Shown here: one piece after another, positions 10 through 19,602 of the stretch | Layout of the letters: each line of letters begins with the position of its first letter | Position numbering within the stretch: the stretch's first letter is position 1 | Source of the DNA: Acidimicrobiia bacterium | Lineage (GTDB): Bacteria; Actinomycetota; Acidimicrobiia; Spongiisociales; ZC4RG35 | NCBI GenBank assembly: GCA_965214265.1 | Contig: CBDCBK010000010.1 | Coordinates: 678,230 to 742,229, forward strand | Direction: 5' to 3' | DNA length: 64,000 nucleotides | Translations under genes and position numbers: made by a program | The notes under the pieces: model-generated | Told to the model about the DNA's origin: nothing | Databases searched by the model: none | Seen by the model: the letters and a program-made list of their open reading frames with translations, nothing else

Positions 10-1605
10 TTGTCCGCCGCGGATAGGACGCGGGTGATCGTAGGGTCGGCCAACCTGTCCGAACGGGCATTCTCGGGAAACCAGTCCGAGACGTTGGTTG
101 TTTTCGACAACGACGAACCAGCATGGAGGCACTACAGTCGCATGTTCGATTCCATCCGGAGTGCCGGCTCTGACGAGATGCCACTTCCGAGTGAGCGAAT
201 CGTCCAAGCCGAGATCGAGGTAACGGATGCCCCGGTGCTGTCGGACAACTCAACCACCGTAATAATCGAAGCTCCCGATCCTGCTGATATCGAGGTGTCG
301 GCGCCGGTGCAGATCGAGCGAGTCGAGAGGGTGGTGGCCGTGTTGAAGCCTCGCCTCGCGGCAGCCATCCCAACGTTGCGGGCCGGAAAACAGAGGATCA
401 CCCCTGTCATCAAGAGGGAATTGAGCCGCATACGCCTGGTCAAGTCGAGCGACGAAGCAGACAGTCGTTACTTCTCTATAGACAGGAGCAACGGCAGGGC
501 GGTGCTGTCCGGAAAGGAGTTCCCTCTGAGCTGGGACGCCTCGGCCGCTCGCGCTGACGCCAAGCTCGTTCTGGATTTCTTCGGGAACTACGAGGGGGCG
601 TTTGAAGGGGATGTGCCCGCTCTCCAGCGTGACTATTTCACCCTGATGGCTTGGCTGTATTTCTCTCCGCTCATTTGTGACCTCCGTTCATTGGCCCATC
701 TGAGGGACAGCGATGTGGTTCGCTACCCCTCTTTCGCCATCATCTTCGGCAAGTCCAACTGCGGCAAGACCAGCCTGGTGGACACCTTGACGACTTCCAT
801 GTTCGGTCGTCCCCACACAGTCGACAAAAGGGGTTTCACAACCGCCCAACTGCGCGGCTTGCAACACGCCTACAGGCGTCACCCGGTGGTCTTCGACGAT
901 GTGGGACGGAGAGCCTTCAATCAACATGGCAAGGACATGATCAAGGACGAGTTGCCGCCATCTGTCGCCGAGTATCCGGGGTTCGTCTTGTCGATGAACA
1001 CCGAGCCTCACTCCTTCCCCGACGAGATCGCCAAACGCAGCATGATGATCTACACCACCACCGCCCTTCCTGCTCACAACGAAGGTTTGCGGCAGACCCT
1101 ACAAAGCGAGGTACAGCAAATCCGAGGAGGGCTGACCGGTCACCTCTACCGACGCTACCTGGCGGATGTCATGGCCCGACTGGAACTGGACCGTCTTTCC
1201 GAGGACTGGTTGGCGGTCTCATCGTCAGTGCTCGCCGCCGTTCTGGCGGAAGCGGCCGAGGGCGCTCCGCCGCACTGGTGCAGGGAAGTCACCTGGCTTG
1301 ACTACGCCGACAAACGCTACGACCGGGTCAGAGACCGGGTCGTAGCCCTGCTGAGGCCGTCGGTATACGCCAAGAGGGAGGGCGACAGTCCGACCGGCTG
1401 GACCATTGACGGGAACAACGTCATAGTTTGGGAACAGCGGGACGCCTTCGGCAGGCGCGCTTTCGCCTGGGATGACCTCCCCTCCACCCTCATCGACGAA
1501 GCCGCCAGTGGCGGCGACCGAACAGTCTTGCACAAAAAGAGCCTTGAGAGTTTCCTCAATCAGCTCCTCCGACCCAAGGGACGTTGGTGGAGGCGCAGGA
1601 ATTAG
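10..1605 (+). CDS. partial ORF (5' end outside window): C-terminal half of a PLD/HKD-family nuclease-like motif followed by a P-loop NTPase domain; hypothetical defense-islet protein
   Basis: ORF has no start and runs from the window edge. 'VIVGSANLSERAF' matches the GSxN part of an HKD (phospholipase D-like) motif. Downstream are Walker A 'AIIFGKSNCGKTSLV', Walker B 'HPVVFDDVG' and a sensor-like 'FVLSMNTEP'. Confidence 0.5.
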   Translation: MSAADRTRVIVGSANLSERAFSGNQSETLVVFDNDEPAWRHYSRMFDSIRSAGSDEMPLPSERIVQAEIEVTDAPVLSDNSTTVIIEAPDPADIEVSAPVQIERVERVVAVLKPRLAAAIPTLRAGKQRITPVIKRELSRIRLVKSSDEADSRYFSIDRSNGRAVLSGKEFPLSWDASAARADAKLVLDFFGNYEGAFEGDVPALQRDYFTLMAWLYFSPLICDLRSLAHLRDSDVVRYPSFAIIFGKSNCGKTSLVDTLTTSMFGRPHTVDKRGFTTAQLRGLQHAYRRHPVVFDDVGRRAFNQHGKDMIKDELPPSVAEYPGFVLSMNTEPHSFPDEIAKRSMMIYTTTALPAHNEGLRQTLQSEVQQIRGGLTGHLYRRYLADVMARLELDRLSEDWLAVSSSVLAAVLAEAAEGAPPHWCREVTWLDYADKRYDRVRDRVVALLRPSVYAKREGDSPTGWTIDGNNVIVWEQRDAFGRRAFAWDDLPSTLIDEAASGGDRTVLHKKSLESFLNQLLRPKGRWWRRRN

Positions 1606-3526: not shown

Positions 3527-3928
3527 TCACACCCCGATCACCGTCAAGCCGGCAGATCGTGCGGCCTGTCCCTGTCGTATGTCGAAAGTGAGGAAAGTGG
3601 TTGCATCGCCGACGCGCCGCGCCGCAGCGATGTGCAGCGCATCCAGAGATCGGCACAGGGTCTGCTCGGCGATGCGTGCCGCCTCATTGCAGGTGACGGT
3701 ATCGAGGTCTATGAGAGCGAAGCTGTTCAGGTCGGATCGCACCAGTTGCCGGGTGCGAAGCAAGTGGTCGCCGGCGAGCAGTCGGGTAAGGTTGCGGCGT
3801 AGCTCGACCTCGGTGAGGCGGGAGGTGACCAGCACCGGATCGGACCGAATCAACTGTTCGGCGAAGTCGGAGTCCGACTCGGCGATATACCGCTTCAGCA
3901 GAGCGCTAGTGTCCACATAGAGGGTCAC
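3527..3928 (-). CDS. vapC: type II toxin VapC (PIN-domain ribonuclease)
   Basis: PIN signature 'TLYVDTSALL ... TEVE ... DALHIAAA ... FDIRQ'. Likely GTG start at 3928, overlapping the upstream antitoxin stop (GTGA). The longer ORF to 4021 is a spurious N-terminal extension. Confidence 0.8.
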   Translation of the reverse strand: MTLYVDTSALLKRYIAESDSDFAEQLIRSDPVLVTSRLTEVELRRNLTRLLAGDHLLRTRQLVRSDLNSFALIDLDTVTCNEAARIAEQTLCRSLDALHIAAARRVGDATTFLTFDIRQGQAARSAGLTVIGV

Positions 3929-4179
3929 CCGCGATCCTCGTCCAGTGCATCGGCGGTGCTCCGGCCGGCCTTGCATCGGACGATGGGTTCCAACCCGGCG
4001 CCTGAGGGAGGAGTGATCCAACCCCCGGCTATTCCCCGGTCGACCGCCGACACGCCGCCGAGGCCTACCAGTCGGGCCACGGGTTTGCCCCGGTGGGTGA
4101 CGAGGATCGGTTCCCCCCTCCCGGCTCTTCTGACGTAGTCGGAGAGATGGGCTTTCAGTTCGCGTATACCCACATTCAT
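3925..4179 (-). CDS. Phd/YefM-family antitoxin
   Basis: 'MNVGIRELKAHLSDYVRRAGRGEPILVTHRGKPVARLV' is a typical Phd/YefM N-terminus. ATG at 4177-4179, and the stop overlaps the vapC start. Confidence 0.75.
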   Translation of the reverse strand: MNVGIRELKAHLSDYVRRAGRGEPILVTHRGKPVARLVGLGGVSAVDRGIAGGWITPPSGAGLEPIVRCKAGRSTADALDEDRG

Positions 4180-4256: not shown

Positions 4257-5322
4257 ATGAATGACATGGAGGATCGAGTGTCCCGGCAGCCGCGCCGCCC
4301 CACCAGCACCTCCGTTTTCGGGGCAGGTCGAAGAGAGAGCCACGACTCGTCGGCCTTCTACGCCCGTTTCCAGCCACCGATCATCGATGACGACGACCGG
4401 ATAGGCTCTAGTCCTGACCTCGACGGGCCGATCCTGGGGGACGCCCGGAGAATGGAGGAACTCCCCGACCGCTCCGTCGCTCTGGTGGTTACCTCACCTC
4501 CCTATTTCGTGGGGAAGGAATATGAGGACGCGGTGGTTCAGGCGGCTCGGTCGAATGACCTCGAAGCTGAGATACCCAAGAGCTACGGTGAGTACCTCCG
4601 GCTGCTCCATGATGTCTTCACTGAATGCGTCCGGGTGCTGGAGCCGGGAGGCCGCATCGCCGTCAATGTGGCCAATCTGGGCCGAAAGCCCTATCGCAGC
4701 CTGTCGGCTGACGTCATCGGGATCTTCGAGGCTCTCGGTCTGCTGCTCCGGGGCGAGATTATCTGGCGGAAGGCTTCCGCGGCTGGCGGGTCGTGTGCCT
4801 GGGGTTCTTTCCGGAGCCTGGCCAATCCGGTGCTCAGGGACGTAACCGAGCGGATCGTGATCGCCTCCAAGGGCCGGTTTGATCGGGCTCTTAGTGCGGC
4901 CCAGCGCCGATCCCAAGACCTTCCACACCGGTCCAGCGTGGCCAATGACGAGTTCGTGGAAGCCACCCTGGACGTGTGGGAGATTCCTGCCGAGAGCGCC
5001 CGTCGGGTGGGCCATCCGGTTCCTTTTCCTGTCGAGCTTCCCCTGAGGCTCATCGATCTTTACACCTACCTGGACGATCTGGTGCTCGATCCCTTCATGG
5101 GATGAAGGGACGACATTGGTGGCTGCTCATCGAGCCGGGCGGAGGGGAGTCGGCTACGACATCAACAGCGAATACGTGGACATCGCCTTGGAGAGGCTGG
5201 AGCTTGGGTACCGCCGTCCGTTTCTGGAGGAGGAGGCGGGGCGGGCGTTGTCAGCCAACGGTGTCGCCGATGTTTTGGTTTTGGACGGCAATTCCGGGGA
5301 GGATTCCAGGCGCGGGCGGTGA
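4257..5322 (+). pseudogene. beta-class N4-cytosine/N6-adenine DNA methyltransferase (motif IV 'SPPY' precedes motif I); single frameshift between 'DPFMG' and 'GTTLVAAHRAGRRGVGYDIN'
   Basis: 'VALVVTSPPYFVGKEYED' (motif IV) then 'LDPFMG*' at 5105. Motif I continues in the +1 frame as 'EGTTLVAAHRAGRRGVGYDINSEYV' (ORF 5116..5322). The frameshift is not in a homopolymer. Confidence 0.6.
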
Positions 5323-5788
5323 GGGAGGGGAAGAAGGCGCAACGCTTGGCGCGGGACGCCTTGGAGGATGCCGGGTTCGAAATCCTCAGGACGAACCCCA
5401 GGATTGGTGGGTTGGGCATCCAGTTCAGCTTTCTCGTCGAAAACCGGTGCGGCCAGAAGTGGTATGTGGATGTCTCGGGTGCTTCACCACCGTCCGGCCG
5501 GGACTCCGGCGCACCGACACCTTGTGGAAGACGCTGGGCCGTGCTCACGTTCACTGCATGGCTGGCGATGAGACGCCGCTTCTGGTTATGACCTCTAATC
5601 TCCCCAAGCAGGGAAGCGAGGGTCGCAAGGCGCTGGAAGCGGTCGGGCCGCAGAGCGTCTTCGACGCCTTCGAGATCTACCGGGAGCGGGACAGGATGCG
5701 GCTCCGTGATTACGGAACACAGGAGAACCCTGTCCCCTTGGAGGGGTTCTGGACGCAACAGGAGATCGACCAGGCCTTTTTTCAGTAG
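5319..5788 (+). pseudogene. small hypothetical protein translationally coupled (GTGA) to the methyltransferase, possibly a PD-(D/E)XK/Mrr-like restriction nuclease; internal frameshift near 5490
   Basis: The ORF at 5319 begins with GTG overlapping the MTase stop. 'GFEILRTNPRIGGLGIQFSFLVENRCGQKWYVDVSGA' continues in another frame as 'FTTVRPGLRRTDTLWKTLGRAHVHCMAGDETPLLVMTSNL...'. The nuclease assignment is weak. Confidence 0.3.
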
Positions 5789-5835
5789 GTGCCTATGAGT
5801 CCAAGGTTGACAGGGGCGCCACACCCGCCGTTCGG

Positions 5836-6180
5836 TTGGCCGACACTAGGGAAGATCCTGTGGGTGGGTATGAGCAGGCGGCTGGCCAAACCCCGGCTCA
5901 GCGCATGGCCCTCATAGCCCGGGACCGGGGTTGTGTGGGCTGTGGCGCTGATCCGGCCTGGTGTCAGGCGCATCACCTCATCCCCTTGGGAGGTCGGGGG
6001 ACCCACCGACATCGCCAATCTGTGCTTGTTGCCGCTGTCACCACCAAGTACACGACGACGGCTGGCAAATCCAACGAACGCCTGCGGGAAAACATGTTCT
6101 CCAACCGCCCCACCCCACAAACCCCTCCCCGCTGCCCATCAAGACTCCACCCCGCCGCCGAGGGCACCGTAAACCAACTA
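5836..6180 (+). pseudogene. fragment of 13E12-repeat/DUF222-type HNH endonuclease (C-terminal HNH motif only, frameshifted)
   Basis: 'CVGCGADPAWCQAHHLIP', then in shifted frames 'GGPTDIANLCLL' and 'CRCHHQVHDDGWQIQRTPAGKH'. This is the HNH core split over three frames. Confidence 0.6.
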
Positions 6181-6247
6181 CCAAACTGATATTGTGAAAA
6201 CAGTCTCCTGGGTTTAAAGGCCTCTATTGTCGGCGGCTGCCCGGGGA

Positions 6248-6712
6248 TCAGACCGCGCCCATGTAGCGATGGTGGGACCAGGCCTCGTAGACCACGATGG
6301 CCACCGAGTTGGCAATGTTGAGGCTGCGAACGCCCGGCAACATAGGGATGCGAGCGGTCTCATCCACCCAGGGGGAGGACATGACTTCCTGAGGTAGCCC
6401 GGTCGACTCGGGCCCGAACAGCAGGGCGTCGCCCGGCGCGTAGTCGAGCGAGGAATGCCAGTTGACGCCCAGGGGCGAAAAGGCGTATACCCGCTCGGGT
6501 TGTTCGGCCTCCAGCCAATCGTCGAGGCTTGCGTGGACCTGGGTGACCACCCTCTCCCGATAGTCCATCCCCGCTCGCTTGAGGCGGGTGTCGGACATCT
6601 CAAATCCCAACGGCTCGATGAGGTGGAGAAGGCATCCGGTATTGGCGGCGAGCCGCATGATATTGCCGGTGTTGGGGGGAATCTCGGGCTGGTAGAGAAC
6701 AATGGAGAACAA
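6248..6712 (-). CDS. trmL: tRNA (cytidine(34)-2'-O)-methyltransferase TrmL (SpoU family)
   Basis: Near full-length similarity to E. coli TrmL: 'IVLYQPEIPPNTGNIMRLAANTG ... IPMLPGVRSLNIANSVAIVVYEAW'. Confidence 0.85.
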   Translation of the reverse strand: MFSIVLYQPEIPPNTGNIMRLAANTGCLLHLIEPLGFEMSDTRLKRAGMDYRERVVTQVHASLDDWLEAEQPERVYAFSPLGVNWHSSLDYAPGDALLFGPESTGLPQEVMSSPWVDETARIPMLPGVRSLNIANSVAIVVYEAWSHHRYMGAV

Positions 6713-7939: not shown

Positions 7940-8320
7940 TTACTCGCTTTCGAATGAGTTCATGTCGGCGGCTTGATAGACGCCGAAGATTATCCCCTGG
8001 GGGTCGCGGCAATAGGCGACCTGGCCCACCTCGGGGATGTCCTGGATGGGCACCACCATCTCCCCGCCGGCTGCGGAGACCTTTTCCAGCGCCTCTGAGA
8101 TATCGATCACGTCCACAGTGATCACGGTGCGGGCCTCCTGGTCGGGGGAGGGCATCAGCGCGCCGTTGATGCCCGGCCGGTCTTCGGGGCCGGTGGTGGC
8201 CAGCCAATACGGAAAGTCCCCCCACTGGGAGAAGGTCCAGCCTAGCGCTTCGGCGAAAAATTCCCGGCTGGCGGCGGGATCCGGACTTTGATACTCGAAG
8301 TGAACCGGTCGCATTGGCAT
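7940..8320 (-). CDS. VOC/glyoxalase-family protein
   Basis: 126 aa. The motif 'VHFEYQSPDPAASREFFAEALGW...GIIFGVYQ' is typical of the glyoxalase/bleomycin-resistance fold. Confidence 0.6.
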   Translation of the reverse strand: MPMRPVHFEYQSPDPAASREFFAEALGWTFSQWGDFPYWLATTGPEDRPGINGALMPSPDQEARTVITVDVIDISEALEKVSAAGGEMVVPIQDIPEVGQVAYCRDPQGIIFGVYQAADMNSFESE

Positions 8321-8340
8321 TGTCGCTTTCTATTGGGTTA

Positions 8341-10149
8341 TCAGTGGGCGGCCATCTCGGGTCTGAAATCCAGCTCATACAAAAGCCCTGATCCGCCCGA
8401 CGCCGAGGCTTCCAGAGATCCGGCTTCGGGGAGGAGTTGCTCGCAGTAGAAGCGGGCAGTGGCGACCTTCTGACCCAGCCAGTCGTCCTTTCCGGCGGCG
8501 GCGCCGATTTGGCCGAGCGCGGCCTGGGCCGATCGGACCATGAGCCATCCGCCCATCACCGTTCCGAACATGGTTAGGTAGGGGTAGGCGCCCGCCAGGG
8601 CGTCCTGATAGGCGCCCTTGGCCAAGAGCGATCCCAGGGCGCGGCTTGATCGAGCGAGAATCTGGACCGACCGGGCCAACTCCTCACCGGCTCTTTGCAA
8701 CTCGTCCACCGAGGAGGCCTCCATGGCGGTGATCCCCACCTGCTCCAGCAGCTCTTTCACCGCTCCGCCCGATCGGATGGGGAGCTTTCTCATCACCAGG
8801 TCGATGGCCTGGATGCCGTTGGTGCCCTCATAGATGGGACTGATACGTGAGTCCCGGAAGAACTGGGCGGCGCCGGTCTCTTCCACAAATCCCATCCCAC
8901 CATGGATCTGGATGCCCAGCGACGCAATCTCCACCCCCAAGTCGCTGCACCAGGCCTTGGCGATGGGGGTCAGGAGCGACACAAGTTCCTCCGAGCGGGT
9001 ACGTTCCTCCTCGGATTCGGCATAGTACGAGCGGTCAACGGTGGCGACACAGTAGAACAACAAAGCTCTCATCGCCTCGATGCGGGCCTTCATCGTGGCC
9101 AGCATCCGGCGAACGTCGGGATGGTTCACGATCAGGGACTGCTCACCCGGCGGGGCGCCCACCGCTCTTCCCTGGCGGCGTTGCCAGGAGAACTCCAACG
9201 CCTTCTGATAGGCGCGCTCGGCGACCGCCAGCCCGCCTTGTCCCACCGCGATCCGGGCGGCGTTCATCATGGTGAACATCCGGGCCATTCCTCCGTGTTC
9301 GGGGCCCACCAGATAGCCGATTGCACCGCCGTTCTCGCCATATGAGAGCATGCAGGTGGGACTTCCGTGAATGCCCAGCTTGTGCTCGAGGGAGACGGTC
9401 CGGATGTCGTTCAGTTCGCCCGGTTTTCCATCCGGGCCCACCAGCCGCTTGGGCACCACGAACAGGGAGATCCCCTTGGTGCCGGGAGGTGCGTCGGGGG
9501 TCCGCGCCAGGACGGTGTGAATGATATTGTCCGACATCTCGTGATCGCCCCAGGTGATGAAGATCTTGGTTCCCGTGATCCGGTAGCTTCCGTCCGGCTG
9601 GGGTACGGCCTTGGTGGTGAGCGCTCCGACATCGGAGCCGGCGTGGGGCTCGGTGAGGTTCATGGTTCCCGACCACTCGCCACTGATCAGCTTCTCCAGA
9701 TAGAGGCCCTTTTGCTCGGGCGAGCCGTGCATGCTCAGCAGGTGGACGGTTCCCGCGGTGAGGGTGGAGCACAGCGAGAAGGCCAGACTTGAGGAGATCA
9801 TCAGCTCATCCACCGCGAAACCCACCACCTGGGGCATGCCTCCTCCGCCCCAGTCAGCGGGCAGGGAGATCCCCTGCCATCCCGCTTCGACTAGCAGCCG
9901 ATAGGCCTCGGCGAATCCGGTGGGGGTCTTTACCGTTCCCTCCGCGGTGAGGACCGATCCTTCGGCGTCGCCCACCGGGTTGAGAGGCGCTACCACCTCG
10001 GAGAAAAAGCGCCCGGCCTCCTCCAGAAGATCGCTTACCGTCCCCGGGTCGGCGTGCTGGAATCCGTTCAGCTTGGACAAGGACTCCAAATCCACGATGT
10101 GTTGCAGCACGAATCCGACATCCCGAAGCGGGGGCTGATAAACACTCAT
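8341..10149 (-). CDS. long-type acyl-CoA dehydrogenase (FadE-like, about 600 aa)
   Basis: ACAD N-terminal, middle and C-terminal domain signatures ('GFAVDELMISSSLAF', 'TEPHAGSDVGALTT', 'IYEGTNGIQAIDLVMRKL'). 602 aa. Confidence 0.8.
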   Translation of the reverse strand: MSVYQPPLRDVGFVLQHIVDLESLSKLNGFQHADPGTVSDLLEEAGRFFSEVVAPLNPVGDAEGSVLTAEGTVKTPTGFAEAYRLLVEAGWQGISLPADWGGGGMPQVVGFAVDELMISSSLAFSLCSTLTAGTVHLLSMHGSPEQKGLYLEKLISGEWSGTMNLTEPHAGSDVGALTTKAVPQPDGSYRITGTKIFITWGDHEMSDNIIHTVLARTPDAPPGTKGISLFVVPKRLVGPDGKPGELNDIRTVSLEHKLGIHGSPTCMLSYGENGGAIGYLVGPEHGGMARMFTMMNAARIAVGQGGLAVAERAYQKALEFSWQRRQGRAVGAPPGEQSLIVNHPDVRRMLATMKARIEAMRALLFYCVATVDRSYYAESEEERTRSEELVSLLTPIAKAWCSDLGVEIASLGIQIHGGMGFVEETGAAQFFRDSRISPIYEGTNGIQAIDLVMRKLPIRSGGAVKELLEQVGITAMEASSVDELQRAGEELARSVQILARSSRALGSLLAKGAYQDALAGAYPYLTMFGTVMGGWLMVRSAQAALGQIGAAAGKDDWLGQKVATARFYCEQLLPEAGSLEASASGGSGLLYELDFRPEMAAH

Positions 10150-10673
10150 ATGCGCTAATAGAGAATATCAAGATGCTGCCTTTAGGGATAAAAGGAACCC
10201 AGAGGATGCCTGGGGAGGGATGGTGGAGAGGGGTCGGCGGCGCGAGTTGTGAAAATCCGGGGCTATTCGCGAAAAAAGGGGCGATGAATCCCCGGAACAC
10301 ACTGGCAGAGTCACTAAACACCTCCGGTCCGTTCCGACGTCGTCCGGACCGCAGAATCCCAGAGGTTATATGCCGCGAAACACCCCTCACCGGGGCTCGG
10401 ATTTTCACGACTTCACAGATGACGGCGGTGGCGGGGAGAGGGCCTGAGGGGTGAAAAGTGGCCAGCCGATTTTCGTGATTTAGGGTTCCCTTTTCGCGAG
10501 TTTGGGGTACCGTTTCGGTGCTCGTTGCATAGGGTTCCCGCTCCCCATTAATAGGGGACAGGGCATTCTTCGAGTGGCGGGACGTACGAGCCGGCCCAAA
10601 CTCCTGTCCGATGAGATCCGGGCGGTCTATTCTTGACAGAGCTACCCCTCTTTCGCGAACTGCCTGCCCATCG

Positions 10674-12728
10674 ATGTCGATGACCACCTTAAATCAAATA
10701 TCACGCTTCTTCAACCGGGAGCTTTCCTGGCTGGACTTCAATAGCAGGGTGATTGCGCTGGCCGAGCAGGAGGAGACGCCGCTTTTGGAGAAAGTGCGGT
10801 TCCTCTCCATCTGGGCCTCCAATCTGGATGACTTCTTCCAGATCAGGGTGGCGGGGCTCAAGGAGCAGGTTGCCCACGGCGTGAGAAGAAGAAGCCCCGA
10901 CGGACGCACCCCTGGCCAACAGCTCTCCGCCATCCGCGCTGAGACCTCCGAGCAGTACCTGCGGGCCTCCAAAATATTCTGCGATCAGCTGGTTCTGGGT
11001 CTGGCCGAGGCAGGCCTAGGCCTCAAATCCTATGCTGAACTGGACGAAAAGGCCGCCACCTATCTTGACAAATACTTCCAGGACACCGTCTTCCCGGTGT
11101 TGACCCCCCTGGCGGTGGATCCCTCTCATCCCTTTCCCCACATCTCCAGTCTCTCTCTCAACCTGGCGGTACATGTGCAGGAGAGCCAAAGCGGGGCGGT
11201 CCGATTCGCCCGGGTCAAGATCCCACCCATCCTCCCCGCCTTCGTGCCCCTGTGGGACAGCGGATGGTTCGTCCCGCTCGACGATCTGATCGCAGCGCAT
11301 CTCGATGAGCTTTTCCCGGGGATGCGGATTTTGGGCTATCACCTCTTCCGTGTCACTCGCAACGCCGACTTCGAACTGGAGGAGGACGCGGGCGGCGATC
11401 TGTTGGCCGCCATCGAGTCGGAGTTGACCCGGAGAAGGTTCGGGCGGGCGGTCCGTCTGGAGGTGGCCGGGACGATGAGCAGTGAGGTGCTGGACATGCT
11501 CACCCGCGAACTGGAGATATCGGAATCCGACGTCTACGTCATGGACGGGGTGTTGAACATGGTCGACATCGGGTTCATGGCCGCTCTGCCCCGACCGGAG
11601 CTGCAATATCGGCCCTGGACATGGGTGCCCCACCCCCGGCTGGCGGGACGCATCAGTGAGAAACTGGACATGTTCGAGGTGATCAGGGAAGGGGACATCC
11701 TGGTGCATCACCCCTATGACTCGTTTGCCTCCTCGGTGGAGGAGTTCATAGTACAGGCGGCTTCGGATCCCAACGTGCTGGCCATCAAGCAGACCCTTTA
11801 TCGCACCGCCAGTGACAGCGTGATCATGAACGCCCTGATGGAAGCCGCCACCCGAGGCAAGCAGGTGGTGGCGCTAGTGGAGTTGAAGGCCCGCTTCGAT
11901 GAGGACCGCAACATCACCTGGGCGCAGAGGCTGGAAGACGTTGGTGTGCACGTCGTCTACGGAGTGGTGGGCCTGAAAACCCATACCAAGGTCGCCCTGG
12001 TGGTCCGGCGGGAAGGGGAAGAGATCCGACGCTACTCCCATATCGGCACCGGCAATTACAACGAGCACACCGCTCGCATCTATGAGGATCTGGGGCTGTT
12101 CACCTGTGATGAGGCGGTGGGCGCCGACCTGAGTTTCCTCTTTAACTATCTGACCGGATACAGCCGTCACCCCGCGTACCGCAAGCTCCTGGTCTCTCCC
12201 ATTTTCACCCGGCCTCGCATCCTCAAGCTCATCGAGTCACAGGCCAACCCGGGGGGCCGCATCACCATGAAGATGAACTCTCTGGTCGATTCGGTGATGA
12301 TCGAGGCTCTTTACGCTGCTTCTGTCGCCGGGGCGAAGATCGATCTGGTGGTCCGGGGCATTTGCACCCTGGTGCCGGGCGTGGAGGGGATGTCGGAGAA
12401 TATCAGGGTGCGATCCCTGGTGGGTAGGTACCTGGAGCACTCGAGGATCTACAGATTCGGTGGTCGGGAGAGTCGGGTCTACTACATGGGGTCGGCCGAT
12501 CTGATGACTCGCAATCTCGACAACCGGGTGGAGGCCATGGTGCCCATCGAGGATCCTGATCTGCAGTTCCGCATCGATGAGGTCTTCGAGGTGCTGATGG
12601 CCGACGACACTCTTGCCTGGGAACTGGAAGCGGACGGGAAATGGACCAAGGTGAAGGAGCGGCAGGGCCTCACCACCCATCTCGAGCTGCAGTACCTCGC
12701 CGAGGCGAGGTCCCAGGCCCGTTTCTGA
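10674..12728 (+). CDS. ppk: polyphosphate kinase 1
   Basis: Collinear with mycobacterial PPK1 ('NRELSWLDFNSRVIALAE', 'FRVTRNADFE', 'HTKVALVVRREG', 'RSLVGRYLEHSRIY'). The start is taken at ATG 10674 inside the longer ORF. Confidence 0.9.
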   Translation: MSMTTLNQISRFFNRELSWLDFNSRVIALAEQEETPLLEKVRFLSIWASNLDDFFQIRVAGLKEQVAHGVRRRSPDGRTPGQQLSAIRAETSEQYLRASKIFCDQLVLGLAEAGLGLKSYAELDEKAATYLDKYFQDTVFPVLTPLAVDPSHPFPHISSLSLNLAVHVQESQSGAVRFARVKIPPILPAFVPLWDSGWFVPLDDLIAAHLDELFPGMRILGYHLFRVTRNADFELEEDAGGDLLAAIESELTRRRFGRAVRLEVAGTMSSEVLDMLTRELEISESDVYVMDGVLNMVDIGFMAALPRPELQYRPWTWVPHPRLAGRISEKLDMFEVIREGDILVHHPYDSFASSVEEFIVQAASDPNVLAIKQTLYRTASDSVIMNALMEAATRGKQVVALVELKARFDEDRNITWAQRLEDVGVHVVYGVVGLKTHTKVALVVRREGEEIRRYSHIGTGNYNEHTARIYEDLGLFTCDEAVGADLSFLFNYLTGYSRHPAYRKLLVSPIFTRPRILKLIESQANPGGRITMKMNSLVDSVMIEALYAASVAGAKIDLVVRGICTLVPGVEGMSENIRVRSLVGRYLEHSRIYRFGGRESRVYYMGSADLMTRNLDNRVEAMVPIEDPDLQFRIDEVFEVLMADDTLAWELEADGKWTKVKERQGLTTHLELQYLAEARSQARF

Positions 12729-12899
12729 GGCCCGGCGGAAGTAACACCAAGAATTTACGTTCCGTTCACAAAAAACCTCGATCTGTGTTCATTTAGCTCT
12801 CTTAGCGTGGGCGCCATGAGATGGACCCGCGCCCGGAGGCTGTTTTTGCCTCTCAGCGGGTCACGAACGTGTCATCGAGTTCAGGAGTCTGGATATCAG

Positions 12900-13940
12900 A
12901 TGAACTTTGCCAACAAACGTCTTTTCCGCTTGGGAGCAGCCCTGGCAGCCTTGCTTTTGGCGGCGGCGGCCTGTGGAGGAGATGATGGCAGCGCGGCGCC
13001 CGTTACCACCGAGGCGTCCGAGCCCGGGGGATTGTCGGGTTCCATTGAGGTGTCGGGTTCTTCGACGGTGGAGCCGATTACGGCTTTGGTGGCGGAGGAG
13101 TTCAATGCTATGAACCCGGGTGTGGGGATTTCGGTTGAGGGTCCGGGGACGGGGGATGGTTTCCAGCGGTTCTGTGCTGGTGAGACCGATATTTCGGATG
13201 CTTCTCGGGCTATCAAGCAAAAGGAGATCGATGCTTGCGCTGAGGCGGGGATCGAGTGGGTTGAGTTGAAGGTCGCCTTTGATGGGATCAGTGTTTTGAC
13301 TTCGCCTGAGAACACGGCGGTCAATTGCTTGGATCCTGGTGATCTGTATGCGTTGGTTGGTCCGGAGTCGGAGGGTTTCTCTTCTTGGTCTGACGCCAAT
13401 GGTTTGGCTGGCGAGTTGGCGGCGGCTGGTTTGGGTGGTTCGGGTGCTCCGTATCCGGATGCCTCGTTGGTGGTTACCGCTCCGGGTGAGGAGTCGGGTA
13501 CTTTCGACGCTTTCGTGGAGTTGGCGTTGGAGGACATCATCGAGGAGCGTGGTCAGGAGGAGCCGACTCGTGCCGATTATCAGGCTTCGGCCAATGACAA
13601 TGTGATTGTGGACAACATCAGTTCCAACCCGACTTCGTTCGGTTGGGTGGGGTTTGCGTTCTTTGCGGAGAACAGTTCGGTGTTGAAGGCGATCGAGGTG
13701 GATGGTGGTGACGGTTGTGTTGCGCCTTCGGTCGAGTCGATCGCGGATGGGTCTTATCTGTTGTCTCGTGCGCTTTATATCTATGTGTCGCTGAACCGGT
13801 TGGCGGAGTACCCGGCTTTGGGTCCGTTCGTGGACTTTTACCTGGGTGAGGGCCTTTCGTCGGTTAGCGAAGCCGGCTATGTGGACCTTCCCGCCGACAT
13901 AATCGCAGACACCCAATCCGCCTGGGGGGCCATTGGGTAA
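12900..13940 (+). CDS. pstS: phosphate ABC transporter substrate-binding lipoprotein PstS
   Basis: Lipobox 'LLAAAACGG' and PstS motifs ('GSSTVEPI', 'GTGDGFQRFCAGETDISDASR'). Sits upstream of pstCAB. Confidence 0.85.
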   Translation: MNFANKRLFRLGAALAALLLAAAACGGDDGSAAPVTTEASEPGGLSGSIEVSGSSTVEPITALVAEEFNAMNPGVGISVEGPGTGDGFQRFCAGETDISDASRAIKQKEIDACAEAGIEWVELKVAFDGISVLTSPENTAVNCLDPGDLYALVGPESEGFSSWSDANGLAGELAAAGLGGSGAPYPDASLVVTAPGEESGTFDAFVELALEDIIEERGQEEPTRADYQASANDNVIVDNISSNPTSFGWVGFAFFAENSSVLKAIEVDGGDGCVAPSVESIADGSYLLSRALYIYVSLNRLAEYPALGPFVDFYLGEGLSSVSEAGYVDLPADIIADTQSAWGAIG

Positions 13941-13985
13941 ACATTTGGAACGAGACTGATCAAGCAAACAGGTAGAAAAAAGGAC

Positions 13986-14927
13986 ATGCTCAGCACTCCG
14001 GGTTCACTGGATCTCTCCGGTGATCCGCGGCGCTTGCGCCGCGAGCGCAACATGCGTTGGGTGTTCATGTCGGCCGCTGTCTTCACGATCCTGGTGAGCA
14101 TCGCCATCGTGTTCAGCCTGGTCGGGGAGGCGGTTGCCTTCCTGCAAAGCATCGCGTCGGAGACCGATGAAGGCCTGGGTTCGCTGATCGCCGACGGGTG
14201 GTTTCCTCGCCGGGACCGCTTCGATCTGCGAACCATCGTCTGGCACACTTTGATGGTGTCGGCCATCGCCATGGTGGTGGCCACTCCGCTGGGCCTGGGT
14301 GCGGCGGTCTACCTGAGCGAATACGCCAAACCGGGGGTGAGGAGGGTCCTGAAGCCCGCCCTGGAGGTCCTGGCAGGGATTCCCAGCGTGGTGCTGGGTT
14401 ACTTCGCGCTGCGTTTCATCACCCCTGACATACTCCGCTCCTTTTGGGACACCACCCAGCAATCCAACCTGATGGCGGCCGGGATCGGAGTGGGGATTTT
14501 GATCATTCCCCTGGTGTCGTCGGTCTCCGAGGACGCCATGGCGGCGGTGCCTCGCGCTCTCCGGGAAGCCTCATACGGACTGGGCGCCAAGAAGTGGCAC
14601 ACCTCGCTGCGGGTGGTCTTCCCGGCGGCCCTGTCGGGAATTGTCGCCGCACTGATCCTGGGGTTGTCGCGGGCGATGGGGGAGACCATGGTGGTGGCCA
14701 TCGCCGCCGGGGCGACCGGAGGGTCGCTCCTGCAGTTCAATCCCCTATACGGCGGCCAGACCATGACGGGCGCCATGGCTTCGCTCGCCATCGGCTCCGA
14801 TCAGGTGGCGGGAGGGGTTGCAGCCTTCCAGAGCCTCTTTTTCGTGGGGTTCCTGCTGTTTTTGATGACCCTGGTTCTCAACATCGGAAGCGAGCGGCTG
14901 GTGCGTCGTTTCCGACAGAAGTACTAG
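13986..14927 (+). CDS. pstC: phosphate ABC transporter permease PstC
   Basis: Multi-TM permease with the 'EAS...G' ABC signature loop. Position matches the pst operon order. Confidence 0.85.
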   Translation: MLSTPGSLDLSGDPRRLRRERNMRWVFMSAAVFTILVSIAIVFSLVGEAVAFLQSIASETDEGLGSLIADGWFPRRDRFDLRTIVWHTLMVSAIAMVVATPLGLGAAVYLSEYAKPGVRRVLKPALEVLAGIPSVVLGYFALRFITPDILRSFWDTTQQSNLMAAGIGVGILIIPLVSSVSEDAMAAVPRALREASYGLGAKKWHTSLRVVFPAALSGIVAALILGLSRAMGETMVVAIAAGATGGSLLQFNPLYGGQTMTGAMASLAIGSDQVAGGVAAFQSLFFVGFLLFLMTLVLNIGSERLVRRFRQKY

Positions 14928-14946
14928 GACTTCGGGAGGAAGACGA

Positions 14947-15909
14947 ATGGCCACGCGCACCATAGGTTCCGGCATCACCCAGGAGATGCTCCGCCGGGCT
15001 CTGGAAGGCCGCAAGGTCAACATCATCAACCCCCTGGTCGCCCTGATGCTATTGATCTCACTTCTGGCATCCCTGGCGATTCTGGTAGTGCTCTTGTGGG
15101 ATGTGGTGGCCAAGTCGCTTCCCGTCTGGGAGGAGCGGGGGTGGTCGGTGATCACCAGCGATCTCTCACCCCGACCCGCCGAAACGGGAATCATCCAGGG
15201 AATCTTCGGGTCGGTGATGCTGACCGCGGTGGTGGTGGTGCTCTCCTTCCCACTGGGAGTGGCGGCCGCCATATATCTGGAGGAATATGCCCGCGACACC
15301 AGGATCACCCGGATCATGGTGGCCAACATCCGCAACCTGGCCGGGGTTCCCTCCATCGTCTACGGACTGTTGGGCTTGAGCGTTTTCGTGAAGCTGATCC
15401 TCGAGGGACTGGTGGGCCAGGTCAGCGGTCGGACGCTGATCGCAGGAGGCCTTACCCTGTCGATGCTGGTGCTGTCGATTATGGTGATCACTACCCAGGA
15501 GGCGCTGCGCGCCGTTCCCCTTGCGATTCGCGAGGCCTCCTTCGGGGTGGGGGCCACCCGTTGGCAGACCATTCGCCACCATGTGCTGCCGGTGGCCAGC
15601 CCGGCCGTCTTCACCGGTTCGGTGCTGACCCTGGCCCGCGCTTTCGGGGAATCGGCGCCGCTGCTCCTGGCCGGTGCGGTGCTCTCCACCTTTTTCGCCG
15701 CTCCCGAGGGGACTCCGATCACCGGACTGGTCTTCGGAGAGAAATACACGGCTTTGCCTATCATCATCTACAACTGGTCACGCCAGCCCCAGCAGGAATA
15801 TGTTGCCTTGACGGCTGCCGCCATCGTGACGTTGCTGGTGGTGCTGCTGGTGGTGAATGCCGGGGCGATAATGGCTCGAGACGCGCTGGAGCGGCGCAAC
15901 AGGATGTGA
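14947..15909 (+). CDS. pstA: phosphate ABC transporter permease PstA
   Basis: Second permease of the pst operon; '[14 protein letters not shown]' loop. Confidence 0.85.
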
Positions 15910-15944
15910 AAGTCATCAGGCAATACTTTGGACAAGGAGAAAAC

Positions 15945-16811
15945 ATGTCGACCCTTGTGGAAACGGCGCCCGTTGTGGTAGAGGATGGGGTTTCGCCCGG
16001 CCCTGCGCCGCGTTCTTCCGCCGCGTCCCAAAGCAGGCCCGTTATCTTCGATATCAAGGACTTGAATGTCTATTACCGAGATTTTCATGCGGTGGCGGAC
16101 ACCTCTCTGAACATATATCAGAACGAGATAACCGCTTTGATCGGCCCTTCAGGATGCGGCAAATCCACCGTCCTGCGCTGCCTGAACAGGATGAACGATC
16201 TGATCGACGGAGCGCGCGTGGACGGCGAGGTTCTCTATCACGGGATCGATCTGTACGGAGCATCGGTCGATGCCGTCGAGGTTCGCCGTCGGATAGGGAT
16301 GGTGTTCCAAAAGCCCAATCCCTTTCCCAAGTCAATATACGAGAACGTCGTGTTCGGCCCGAAGGTGGCCGGATGGAAGGGCGACTTCGACGAGTTGGTG
16401 GAAGAGTCCCTGCGACGGGCCGCCCTGTGGGAGGAGGTCAAGGACAAGCTGGGAGACTCGGCCTTTGATCTCAGCGGCGGCCAGCAGCAGAGACTGTGCA
16501 TAGCCCGGGCCATCGCCACCAGCCCGGATGTGGTGCTGATGGACGAGCCGTGCTCGGCGCTCGACCCGATCGCCACCTACCGGATCGAGACTCTCATGAG
16601 GGAGTTGAAAGAGCAGTACACCATCGTGGTGGTCACCCACAACATGCAACAGGCCGCCCGGGTGAGCGACCGCACCGCCTTTTTCTCGGTGAACGTGGGA
16701 GAGAGCGGCCAGCGCACCGGCCGGCTGGTCGAATACGACTCCACCGATCAGGTCTTCACTGCCCCGACTTTGAAGGAGACCGAGGATTACATCACCGGGA
16801 GGTTTGGATGA
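15945..16811 (+). CDS. pstB: phosphate ABC transporter ATP-binding protein PstB
   Basis: '[11 protein letters not shown]', '[14 protein letters not shown]' and '[11 protein letters not shown]'. The true start is ATG 15945; the longer ORF from 15096 is an out-of-frame overlap with pstA. Confidence 0.9.
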
Positions 16812-17497
16812 CGACCGACCAGCGCCCTGATTTCCACGCCGCGCTGAACAGCCTCGAGGAGACCACTCTCAGCATGGCTGACCGGGTGGAGAGAATGGTG
16901 TCCATGGCGGTCAAGGCGTTGGTGACATCCGACGATGAGCTGGTCTCGGAGGTGATCGCCTCCGATGAGATCGTCGACGATCTCTACATGGACATCCGGG
17001 GCAGATGGATGCAGATCATGGCTCGCCAGCAGCCCGTGGGAAGAGACCTGCGGATGATGGCCGCCATTCTGGAGCTCAACAACACCTTGGAGCGCATGGG
17101 CGACCAGGCGGAGAACATCGCTCGCATAGTTCGGGCCACCGCCGGGCTGCCCCGTGAGGAGACCATCGTGGCCAAGCTGGCAGAAATGGGCGATTTACTG
17201 AAGCCGATGATCCGCACCGCCATCGACGCCTTCGCGCGCCGGGACGCCGATGAGTGCCTGCTGCTGCCGGCCATGGACGTTCCGGTGGATGTCCTCTACC
17301 GCGGCTTGTGGAAGCATGTGGTGGCATGCGGGCACGACCAGCCGCTTCTGGAATGGGCGACCCGAATGGTTCTGGTGTCGCGGGCCTTGGAGAGAGTCGG
17401 TGACCAGGCGGTCGACATCGGAGAGCAGGTTGCTTTCCTGAAGACCGGCGATCACCAGGAATTCACTCGCATACCCGAAGATGGCTCGGACCACTGA
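16808..17497 (+). CDS. phoU: phosphate signaling complex protein PhoU
   Basis: 230 aa with two PhoU repeats ('VSMAVKAL...DDELV', '[14 protein letters not shown]', '[14 protein letters not shown]'). ATGA overlap with the pstB stop. Confidence 0.85.
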
Positions 17498-18194
17498 GGT
17501 GGCCTACCGAGTTCTAGTGGTGGAGGATGAGCCCGCCATCTCCGAGTCCATCGCCTATGCGCTGGAGACGGAGGGGATGTCGGTGGAGGCGGCCTACACC
17601 GTCTCCGAGGCGCTTGCCCGGGTGAGGAATCGTCCTCCCTCTTTGGTTTTGTTGGATGTGATGCTCCCCGGCGGCTCGGGCTTGGATGTCTGCCGGGAGA
17701 TCAGGACCTTCTCCGATGTTCCCATCATCGTGCTGAGCGCCCGCGACTCGGAGGCCGACAAGGTGGCCGGTTTGGAACTGGGCGCCGACGACTATGTGAC
17801 CAAGCCGTTTTCCATGAGGGAGCTGATCGCCCGGGTCCGCTCTCACATTCGCCGGGCAGCGCGCTCGGGACTGATGTCGGAAACCAACGAGGTGCTGCGG
17901 GGCGGGCCGGTGGAGTTGGATGTGGACGCCCACGAGGTGAGGATCAAAGGAGAGGTGGTCCCTCTTCGACCCAAGGAATTCGATCTTCTGGAGACGCTGA
18001 TGCGCAGAAAGGACCGGCTGGTTACCCGGGAAACTCTGCTTGGCGAGGTGTGGGGCGCCTCTTTCTACGGAGACACCAGAACGCTGGATGTCCATGTCAA
18101 GCGGCTCCGCCACAAGATCGAGGAGGACTATTCGACGCCCCGCTACCTGGTTACGGTTCGGGGTCTCGGTTACAAGTTCGTCGATGCGCCCTAG
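17481..18194 (+). CDS. OmpR-family response regulator (PhoP/RegX3-like)
   Basis: Receiver domain 'VLVVEDEP...LLDVMLPGGSGLDVC' and winged-helix C-terminus 'RGLGYKFV'. An alternative GTG start at 17499 lies just after the phoU stop. Confidence 0.85.
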   Translation: MARTTEVAYRVLVVEDEPAISESIAYALETEGMSVEAAYTVSEALARVRNRPPSLVLLDVMLPGGSGLDVCREIRTFSDVPIIVLSARDSEADKVAGLELGADDYVTKPFSMRELIARVRSHIRRAARSGLMSETNEVLRGGPVELDVDAHEVRIKGEVVPLRPKEFDLLETLMRRKDRLVTRETLLGEVWGASFYGDTRTLDVHVKRLRHKIEEDYSTPRYLVTVRGLGYKFVDAP

Positions 18195-19539
18195 CAGACG
18201 TCGGGGACACCGCCTGATCCGACGTCTGGTTTTGACCCTGGTGGTCGTGGCGGGGGTCTCGGCGATCTTGTGGTCGGTGTTGAGCGCAGTGCTGGGAGTG
18301 CCCTTCTGGCTGGCCGGCTTGATCTCTGGGAGTTTGGGTCTCACGGTCTACGGTGTGGTGCTCTTGCGGTTGCGCAACGCCCTAGTGGGGTTGGGCGAGG
18401 CGGCGGCCGGCCTGTTGAAGGGGGACCCCCAACTCGCCCAGCACCCCCTGGGAATTGAAGAGGTGGACCGCCTGGCTGCCGCCCTTCGGGAAGCGGGGCG
18501 CCATTTCCAGAACACCGAGGACGCCCTCCGGAGGGAGCAGGGTCTTTTGGAGGTGGTGCTGGAGGCCCTGCCCGGGGGGGTCCTGTTGGTGGAGGCCGAT
18601 AGTCAGGTGGCCTATTCGAATTCGGCCTGTCGTCAGATGCTGGGGGTGGTGGGAGACCCTTCGGGCCGTCTGGCGTTGCGTCCGATCAGGAGGCTGGTGA
18701 AAAGGGCCCGGGAAAGTGATCAGGCCTATGAGGAGACCCTGACCCGCGGCTATCCCCAACGCACTCTGGGAGCCAGAGCCTTCACGATAGATGCCGAGGA
18801 CCGGGTGCTGGTCATTGTTCTGGACCTCACCGAAACTCGGCGGGTGGAGACCATGCGGCGGGATTTCGTGACTGACGCCTCTCACGAACTCAAGACTCCG
18901 GTGGCTTCTATTCTTGCCTCCGTCGAGGCCTTGGAGATGGCCTTGGAGCGCGATCCGGAGTCGAGCCGGCTGTTCGCCGAGCAGATCTCGTCCTCGGCTC
19001 TGCGCTTGGCCCGATTGATCTCCGATCTGTTGGATCTTTCCCGTCTGGAGGCACAGGAGCCGGCCCCGGATAACTTCGATCTGGAGAAGGTGGTGACCGC
19101 CGAGGTGAAGCCGTTTGTGCAGGCCGCCCGCCAAAAGCGCATCGAGTTTACGGTGCGTACCGTGCCGGCGGCGGTGAGAGGATCGTCTGCCGAACTCGGT
19201 CTGGCCATCCGGAACCTGTGCGACAATGCTCTCCGGTATACCGAGGAGGGCGGGAGGATCGAGGTGGCGCTCTACGAGGGCCATGGCGAGGCGGCCTTGA
19301 CGGTCACCGACACCGGAGTGGGGATCCCGGGCCGGGATCTGGGACGGATTTTTGAGAGGTTTTACCGGGTGGACGTGGCCCGCTCCCGGCGGACGGGCGG
19401 CACCGGCCTGGGTTTGGCGATCGTCAAGCATGTGGCTGAGCGGCACGGCGGCACGGTGATGGTGGAAAGCTTGCTGGGGGAGGGATCCACTTTTATCCTG
19501 CGGGTTCCCCTGGCGGAAAGGGGGACCGCTTCTCTCTGA
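18184..19539 (+). CDS. sensor histidine kinase (PhoR/SenX3-like)
   Basis: Two TM helices, a HAMP-like segment, the H-box 'DASHELKTPVASI' and the ATPase G-boxes 'DTGVGIP' and 'GGTGLGLAIV'. ATG 18184 overlaps the regulator stop. Confidence 0.85.
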   Translation: MRPSRRRGHRLIRRLVLTLVVVAGVSAILWSVLSAVLGVPFWLAGLISGSLGLTVYGVVLLRLRNALVGLGEAAAGLLKGDPQLAQHPLGIEEVDRLAAALREAGRHFQNTEDALRREQGLLEVVLEALPGGVLLVEADSQVAYSNSACRQMLGVVGDPSGRLALRPIRRLVKRARESDQAYEETLTRGYPQRTLGARAFTIDAEDRVLVIVLDLTETRRVETMRRDFVTDASHELKTPVASILASVEALEMALERDPESSRLFAEQISSSALRLARLISDLLDLSRLEAQEPAPDNFDLEKVVTAEVKPFVQAARQKRIEFTVRTVPAAVRGSSAELGLAIRNLCDNALRYTEEGGRIEVALYEGHGEAALTVTDTGVGIPGRDLGRIFERFYRVDVARSRRTGGTGLGLAIVKHVAERHGGTVMVESLLGEGSTFILRVPLAERGTASL

Positions 19540-19602
19540 GGGAGGCTGTCCCGGGGACGGGATCAGGCGGTAGGGAGGGTTTGGCTATCGTGAAAAGCGG
19601 GT

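Follow-up and report, generated by a model that had tools for sequence, protein, structure and literature searches.

Among described proteins, the functionally nearest to the gene analysed here are SauUSI, a Type IV restriction enzyme (PDB 7CLG), and MtsD of MANTIS (Gao_RL), both of which join a phospholipase D (PLD) nuclease to a motor. PLD enzymes act through a covalent histidine (phosphohistidine) intermediate. A single HKD motif supplies half of a PLD active site, and in Nuc, BfiI, SauUSI and MtsD alike it takes two paired PLD domains to cleave, a principle reportedly set out by Stuckey & Dixon 1999. The proteins nearest in predicted fold are Cch of the staphylococcal cassette chromosome SCCmec and the Rep proteins of the Staphylococcus aureus pathogenicity islands (SaPIs), which lie in replication modules next to their own origins and iterons (PMC9371898). 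Here we describe a PLD nuclease/Aq_aa27 AAA+ ATPase fusion gene (the PLD-ATPase gene), the 3' part of which occupies nt 1-1605 of the forward strand of a 64,000-nucleotide stretch of an Acidimicrobiia bacterium genome (contig CBDCBK010000010.1; the whole stretch is referred to as the window). Residue conservation and structure modelling showed that one chain, the product of a stand-alone gene, combines a PLD nuclease that looks competent with an AAA+ ATPase that looks competent and, as predicted from the models, oligomeric. Based on genomic context and structure, its product is predicted to be an ATP-dependent DNA nuclease that works on its own against foreign DNA and so provides defence, or a restriction-like function, from a single gene. 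We consider this reading about evenly balanced, the case for a defence role being circumstantial.

Frame 1 of the forward strand contained no stop from base 1 until the stop codon at 1603-1605. The TTG start at position 10 is a product of the open reading frame (ORF) listing and not biology, and the gene extends past the left window edge, in agreement with the earlier note, which had called this a partial ORF. The window holds 534 codons plus the stop of a gene of about 664 codons, or four-fifths of it; the part beyond the edge encodes some 130 residues of the N-terminus, among them the HxK half of the HKD motif. The protein was completed through its relatives. A search of 5.8 billion proteins returned 991 relatives, the best of which (P0001, 664 aa) was 94% identical across all 534 window residues and reads ...RYVAHAK up to the window edge and LYLLSAGDRTRVIVGSANLS after it, placing HxK directly before base 1. 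The full gene is present at two loci syntenic with the window, L002 (encoding P0001) and L113 (encoding P0018, which is 98% identical to the window protein). Comparison of the window ORF with nine orthologues by the Nei-Gojobori method gave dN/dS values of 0.09-0.13, demonstrating that the gene is under strong purifying selection, and every invariant residue located within the window was intact. Because these residues are conserved and dN/dS is low, chance motifs or a pseudogene were excluded as explanations.

The single PLD (HKD) nuclease domain is represented in the window by its C-terminal third, which the first 156 nucleotides encode. Conservation was assessed in an alignment of 40 full-length members with identity down to 23%, numbered according to P0001 (window residue numbers are the P0001 numbers minus 130). 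Seven PLD columns were invariant: H128, K130, G145, S146, N148, S150 and E160. The GSxN half of the motif recognized in the earlier note is therefore real; it reads GSANLS (nt 43-60, window residues 15-20) and is followed by the conserved Glu of the PLD site (E160) at nt 88-90. The D position of the HxK(x)4D(x)6G(S/T)xN motif was variable in the family, as it is in several PLD nucleases. The window fragment scored 21.3 bits against Pfam PLDc_2 (E=2.5e-4), below the cut-off of 27, and since fragment profile scores were sub-threshold the motifs were validated through relatives: full-length P0001 cleared the PLDc_2 cut-off with 28.4 bits, and more distant relatives cleared the RE_NgoFVII cut-off with up to 34.3 bits. 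By motif, profile and fold the domain belongs to the Nuc/BfiI/NgoFVII nuclease branch, its nearest PLD relatives are restriction-type nucleases, and the full protein is not a cardiolipin synthase-like PLD, the housekeeping family that the earlier note had weighed. Family members carry one HKD motif per chain, so by analogy with the dimeric enzymes two PLD domains would have to pair for cleavage.

Downstream of the nuclease, nt 157-612 encode a linker and a small helical/beta-hairpin domain in the position of the N-terminal tier of Cch-type helicases. Structure was predicted with AlphaFold2 for P0001 using the 40-member alignment (mean predicted local distance difference test score, pLDDT, 85.7) and, in a second model, for window residues 100-534 (pLDDT 87.9, predicted template modelling score 0.81). 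The first part of the linker region was of low confidence, with pLDDT of 42-69 at P0001 residues 211-240 and 271-290 and of 52-68 over the first 60 residues of the window model, and structured elements were modelled at P0001 residues 233-325. The AAA+ ATPase core follows at nt 613-1080. Its Walker A motif, GKSNCGKTS (nt 748-774, window residues 250-258), has an invariant G, G and K (G380, G385 and K386). In Walker B, VVFDDV (nt 886-903, window residues 296-301), the Asp at window residue 300 (D430) is invariant, as is a Pro (P425) five residues before it, and the first Asp is nearly so. Both Walker motifs stand as the earlier note described them, but they follow GSxN at a spacing of about 230 aa and not about 200 aa. 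The strand after Walker B in the model carries VLSMN (nt 985-999, window residues 329-333), with an invariant Asn (N463) and a nearly invariant Ser two residues ahead of it; this supports its earlier comparison with sensor 1, or motif C, of superfamily 3 (SF3) and AAA proteins. In IAKRS (nt 1027-1041) the K-R pair is invariant or nearly so; its invariant Arg (R476) sits at the end of the helix after this strand, and from that position after sensor 1 is probably a trans-acting Arg finger. The remainder of the gene (nt 1081-1602) encodes a helical lid with an invariant Asp (D532, nt 1204-1206) and then a C-terminal alpha/beta domain. This domain sits where the winged helix of Cch and SaPI Rep sits and may itself be a winged helix, which in SaPI Reps is the DNA- and origin-binding domain (PMC9371898).

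The predicted ATPase fold matched AAA+ ring helicases (Cch, SaPI Rep, MCM and SF3), and a Foldseek search with the C-terminal model ranked Cch first (E=3e-6) in a co-linear alignment covering 406-420 columns of the 435-residue query. By modelled fold and motifs, the ATPase belongs to the AAA+ ring-helicase group nearest Cch and SaPI Rep. The Aq_aa27 part as modelled looks like a whole Cch-type self-loading helicase, comprising N-terminal tier, AAA+ core and C-terminal alpha/beta domain, with a nuclease apparently added in front. The link was not visible in sequence: PDB searches with the protein, a family profile and an ATPase-only profile returned P-loop noise only, Cch among it at E=0.15. 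The window fragment scored 17.9 bits against Pfam RNA_helicase (an SF3 family; cut-off 21.5), and several generic P-loop models likewise scored below threshold. Although the fragment itself falls below that cut-off, the conserved residues and the fold support an NTPase, and together with the relatives' profiles they bear out the PLD nuclease/P-loop NTPase fusion that the earlier note had proposed.

We compared this architecture with described PLD and motor proteins. SauUSI and MtsD share the PLD nuclease, and SauUSI-like enzymes also the stand-alone status, but their motor is a two-lobed superfamily 2 (SF2) helicase in a dimer, whereas that of the PLD-ATPase is a single AAA+ domain of predicted Cch/MCM/SF3 type with a putative Arg finger, which would imply a ring oligomer; they have no sequence similarity to it outside the PLD motif. 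The C-terminal domain of the PLD-ATPase was not identified as a modified-base reader of the SauUSI kind, and membership in a SauUSI-like group was rejected because the motor is AAA+ and not SF2, although the mode of action may be similar. Cch and SaPI Rep are alike in fold but lack a nuclease domain and show no significant sequence similarity. R.NgoAVII/R.CglI, BfiI and Nuc are PLD nucleases with a B3-like DNA-binding domain or none, and the ATPase of NgoAVII/CglI is said (Zaremba et al., in 2014) to be a separate N-protein of another family. DrmC of DISARM is a PLD nuclease of defence islands, and the GSxN tail of the window protein matched it weakly (E 0.0015-0.05). DrmC, however, is a small PLD-only protein, most PLD-ATPase loci are without DISARM genes, the NCBIfam model DISARM_DrmC_I gave 15.4 bits against a cut-off of 133, and no DISARM operon lies in the window; identity with DrmC was rejected. 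MADS is an 8-gene operon in which Mad6-8 are mandatory. Mad8 gave a weak profile match over the ATPase core (22.6 bits, E=1.5e-5), shared by 7 of the 40 members, but the match was confined to the P-loop core and none of the mad operon is present, and this identity was also rejected. No family-level match was found in PADLOC v2, NCBIfam or PHROGs, consistent with the earlier impression that this is no named defence protein.

Relatives of the window protein form a large family of constant architecture. Representatives at 50% identity were scanned exhaustively with HMMER; 830 clusters matched at E<=1e-3, of which 200 also reached E<=1e-30. Full-length matches were 600-800 aa long and aligned from about residue 10-30 through to the end. 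In all relatives Pfam PF27394 (Aq_aa27) lies behind an N-terminal PLDc_2 and/or RE_NgoFVII domain, and some members had an extra N-terminal Xis/excisionase-type helix-turn-helix (HTH). Precomputed Pfam matches to PF27394 were present on essentially all relatives, including P0001 and P0018. The family is thus already catalogued but functionally uncharacterised, and its name, presumably taken from aq_aa27, an uncharacterised protein of the Aquifex plasmid, implies no function. NCBI names were generic (phospholipase D-like domain-containing protein, NgoFVII family restriction endonuclease, restriction endonuclease PLD domain-containing protein). A literature search on Aq_aa27/PF27394 returned unrelated papers only, and one on PLD plus AAA+/SF3 defence proteins turned up SauUSI, MtsD, DISARM and CoCoNuT CnuE as analogues but no description of the present architecture.

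When one genome per species was scanned, 58 loci with 51-88% identity to the query were recovered, all from metagenome-assembled genomes (MAGs) of Acidimicrobiia, Dehalococcoidia and other Chloroflexota, Latescibacterota, Caldilineaceae and one Pseudomonadales. One copy was recovered per genome in all but one MAG. Amino-acid identity across phyla (Acidimicrobiia, Dehalococcoidia, Latescibacterota and Pseudomonadales) was 58-70%, and because this is far too high for vertical descent, sequence comparison indicates that the gene has been transferred horizontally. Record titles of many MAGs point to sponge or coral holobionts and of others to groundwater or sediment, suggesting gene exchange inside a shared habitat. 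The family is also found on nine plasmid records from Acetobacter, Komagataeibacter and Thermus. Homologues from cultivable hosts include WP_035362896.1, on a plasmid of Acetobacter pasteurianus 386B, and WP_275881107.1, on pKNA08 of Komagataeibacter nataicola. Two Acetobacteraceae plasmids that were inspected carry a lone PLD-ATPase gene amid toxin-antitoxin modules. Replicon and relaxase classes were assigned to both, and the annotation of the Komagataeibacter plasmid includes replication initiator protein A and the relaxase TraA. In the Thermus oshimai JL-2 plasmid NC_019388.1 (33155-35919) the match to the homologue is split in two and a transposase family protein is annotated beneath it, so that an insertion sequence has apparently interrupted the gene. 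No tblastn match was found in 50,697 phage genomes. Full-length members at 25% identity were present on 52 IMG/VR contigs (L061-L112), where the conserved surroundings comprise two C5 methylase genes in tandem and genes for an N4/N6 methylase, a VWA-domain protein and a 625-aa HTH_3 protein. As 8 of 10 tested conserved neighbours had no PHROG match, these contigs, though classed as viral, could instead come from other mobile elements or from the flanks of prophages.

The neighbourhood of the gene was compared across loci by ORF clustering (58 genome loci and 52 IMG/VR loci), and no neighbour cluster was common to several lineages. Co-occurrence with methyltransferases, raised in the earlier note, did not hold up, as no neighbour, methyltransferases included, was conserved across lineages. 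The unit is a single stand-alone gene. In pairwise blastn of the loci, homology either continued into syntenic flanks or broke within a few bases of the ORF start or stop, and no conserved non-coding element ends were found. The DNA adjoining the ORF is a variable-cargo hotspot, while the position of the gene is stable within lineages; the flanks are mostly metabolic or transport genes. In Acidimicrobiia the gene lies between an HD-domain gene and a GSDH gene and the cargo beyond varies. L002 carries a PIN/Phd pair, an N4/N6 methyltransferase and a 344-aa protein, and the window the same set minus the 344-aa gene. The downstream slot of L001/L007 (13316-21415) holds a 1742-aa DEAD/Helicase_C/MZB (DUF1998) protein and a 952-aa SNF2 helicase, a DISARM-like pair, and that of L043 (13030-17763) a 1577-aa DUF4011/AAA_11/AAA_12/MTES_1575 helicase-nuclease. 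The Acidimicrobiia slot is a defence-cargo hotspot.

Several of these neighbours raise a different explanation, in which the PLD-ATPase is the nuclease-motor subunit of a multi-gene methylation system resembling restriction-modification (R-M) or DISARM, a methyltransferase marking self and the PLD-ATPase restricting unmarked DNA. A DNA methyltransferase gene lies 2.6 kb downstream in the window and also in five related loci. Most Latescibacterota loci (L023-L034, L046 and L055, about 8300-21000) have the order AlbA_2/HATPase_c_4 gene, PLD-ATPase homologue, hsdM, variable cargo, hsdS and further defence-type genes, with hsdM of a Type I R-M system directly after the homologue in nine of them and the stop of the AlbA_2/HATPase_c_4 gene overlapping the homologue's start by 4 bp in ten. 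In L041 the PLD-ATPase gene is followed by genes for an SNF2 helicase and an Eco57I-type methylase, and in L001 it stands beside the DEAD-MZB (DrmA/B-like) and SNF2 genes. The C5 and N4/N6 methylases near distant homologues on IMG/VR contigs, the weak likeness of the PLD tail to DrmC, and the precedent of MtsD, a PLD-motor effector dependent on the methylation module of MANTIS, can all be read the same way. The methyltransferases, however, belong to unrelated families (N6_N4, HsdM, Eco57I and C5), vary in distance and orientation and are absent at most loci. In the window, a GSDH gene and an opposite-strand toxin-antitoxin pair separate the two genes and the methyltransferase is frame-disrupted, and the Type I loci possess their own full logic. 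Because the neighbours are inconsistent, a cognate methyltransferase or DrmC role was rejected as the general explanation, and we consider a methylation system of this kind unlikely. The variable neighbours in Latescibacterota included an OLD-like ATPase and a giant 1068-aa AlbA_2 protein, and some islands had an SIR2-TPR gene upstream. No hsdR was found within the 10-kb flank of these loci; the 1068-aa gene after hsdS in L025 was considered as HsdR and rejected because it encodes an AlbA_2-domain protein.

The resemblance to Cch and SaPI Rep led to a second alternative, a replication or mobility protein analogous to HUH-Rep proteins in which the PLD domain would cut one strand by way of a phosphohistidine, the Cch/Rep-like helicase then opening the duplex from that nick or from the origin. 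In its favour, the self-loading initiator helicases of SCCmec and SaPIs are the closest structural matches (PMC9371898), members occur on plasmids and IMG/VR contigs, some members have the Xis-type HTH, and the covalent histidine chemistry of PLD enzymes would suit a nickase. Against this, the gene was recovered once per genome in all but one MAG and occupies syntenic chromosomal sites within Acidimicrobiia and within Latescibacterota; integrase, primase and other element genes are not conserved beside it across loci; the carrier plasmids possess their own replicons and relaxases; and the phage genome search was negative, while the conserved neighbours on IMG/VR contigs mostly lack PHROG matches. 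Downstream of the window stop codon no iterons or repeats were detected, only two short imperfect inverted repeats. Unlike Cch and SaPI Rep, the gene stands alone, without downstream repeats and outside replication modules, and it was not placed among mobile-element initiator helicases. A replication or mobility role is very unlikely in our judgement. Its boldest form, a previously unrecognised initiator in which a PLD nickase forming a covalent phosphohistidine-DNA link is fused to a Cch/Rep-like self-loading helicase, would parallel the HUH-Rep/SF3 proteins of rolling-circle replicons and Helitrons with other nicking chemistry, and we regard it as exceedingly improbable. A milder reading is more probable than this one, although tentative: a domesticated mobile-element initiator helicase may have become a self-loading ring nuclease that recognises invaders by replication intermediates and not by methylation.

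The strong purifying selection, the stable syntenic position within lineages and the metabolic genes flanking many loci would also fit a housekeeping enzyme of DNA repair or processing, for instance one coupling Tdp1-like adduct removal to a helicase. Such a role is highly unlikely given the patchy distribution, a cross-phylum identity far above vertical expectation, the presence of the gene on plasmids amid toxin-antitoxin modules, the variable-cargo hotspot in its immediate flanks and the restriction-type nucleases that are its nearest PLD relatives.

We favour the autonomous defence nuclease because of the constant architecture, the invariant catalytic residues of both enzymes, the low dN/dS, the stand-alone gene, the defence-type surroundings, the plasmids, the horizontal transfer and the precedent of SauUSI and MtsD. 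The defence-type surroundings (R-M, DISARM-like, SIR2 and toxin-antitoxin genes) recur in several independent lineages, and by a rough count with no background rate about one-tenth of 106 non-redundant flanking proteins matched R-M, SIR2 or PDC models in PADLOC. Each detail of the mechanism that follows is held with less confidence than this overall reading. By way of its Cch-like AAA+ module the protein would form a ring on DNA and, given the invariant putative Arg finger, ATP sites would be shared between subunits of the ring or spiral. ATP binding or hydrolysis would drive loading onto DNA or movement along it, and assembly on DNA could bring PLD domains together and so license cleavage. 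The C-terminal domain, along with the Xis-type HTH of some members, may choose the target. As no methyltransferase is consistently linked, the signal separating self from non-self would be a feature of the invader's own DNA, either modified bases, following Type IV logic, or, in view of the helicase ancestry, replication intermediates or origins.

A number of observations weigh against a defence nuclease. Many loci, chiefly in Dehalococcoidia, have housekeeping neighbours only. The closest structural relatives are replication proteins and not defence proteins, and PADLOC matches of the protein itself were to single motifs only, ZacB over the PLD motif and mad8 over the ATPase core (E ~1e-5). 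Conservation at a dN/dS of about 0.1 is unlike that of the fastest-evolving defence genes. The pre-sensor-1 beta-hairpin was not evident in the models by DSSP; between Walker B and the sensor-1 strand they have a helix and a 12-residue loop, and a nearly invariant Lys in an IK motif (nt 934-951) precedes the loop. Because the hairpin was not evident, translocation on DNA is not assured, and because the sequence link is also invisible, "helicase" is taken here as a resemblance and not an activity. The oligomeric state, the substrate and the trigger are likewise putative.

Beyond the PLD-ATPase gene, the window carries further cargo. Between its stop and the convergent GSDH gene lies a 460-bp stretch (1606-2096) that is not conserved with L002 and may be a remnant of earlier cargo; within it, a 100-aa ORF (1612-1914) shows weak TPR-like similarity (E=1.4e-4). 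On the reverse strand (3527-4179) a PIN toxin gene (about 3527-3928; E=1.7e-13) overlaps a Phd/YefM antitoxin gene (about 3925-4179; PhdYeFM_antitox E=8.3e-10) by 4 nt. This is the pair the earlier note had named vapBC, and the same pair is present at L002 and L113. The neighbouring DNA methyltransferase was likewise correctly recognized there: an N4/N6 enzyme encoded on the forward strand (4257-5788; N6_N4_Mtase E=2e-26 on the first piece), with three frame disruptions near 5105, 5300 and 5480 when compared by tblastn with the intact 511-aa L002 orthologue. Both the PIN/Phd pair and the methyltransferase serve here as context only. The methyltransferase was present in 5 of 60 compared loci (L002, L003, L004, L006 and L029) in addition to the window and L113. 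All carriers are Acidimicrobiia or unclassified MAGs syntenic with them, and L001/L007 and L043 carry other cargo. In L113 the gene is broken at different places and many more genes are split, with 31 gap openings in a 5 kb alignment, and for this reason long-read indel errors are as likely as real decay to account for the disruptions.

Some side observations concern the same cargo. The intact L002 methyltransferase has a C-terminal extension of about 160 aa without a family match, and it is followed at L002 (15652-17090) by the 344-aa ORF, which has no Pfam match and might be the restriction partner of the methyltransferase. In the window about 500 bp of unrelated sequence (5754-6248) replaces this gene. 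The Cys/His-rich ORF within it (5836-6189), which the earlier note had read as an HNH fragment, had no Pfam match at E<=0.01 and gave a 31-aa match in L006 only. A 119-aa retropepsin-like gene (gag-asp_proteas/Asp_protease_2) is located just upstream of the PLD-ATPase gene on the opposite strand in several Acidimicrobiia relatives, among them L002 (8361-8720) and L113 (8483-8842); in the source genome its position would be beyond the left edge of the window.

In its most ordinary interpretation this is one more uncharacterised nuclease-NTPase fusion near defence genes, with parts that are already catalogued (PLDc_2 and PF27394) and no new principle shown. If the gene does serve in defence, it would add a small one-gene system whose PLD nuclease is powered by an AAA+ ring motor that came from the replication helicases of mobile elements, in contrast to the known PLD restriction enzymes SauUSI and MtsD, which use an SF2 helicase. 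It would also pose the question of how self is recognised without a cognate methyltransferase. The plasmids of cultivable Acetobacter and Komagataeibacter strains that carry the family make these predictions directly testable. Finally, the family is large, and if the holobiont habitat suggested by the MAG records is true, it would serve as a marker of gene exchange there.

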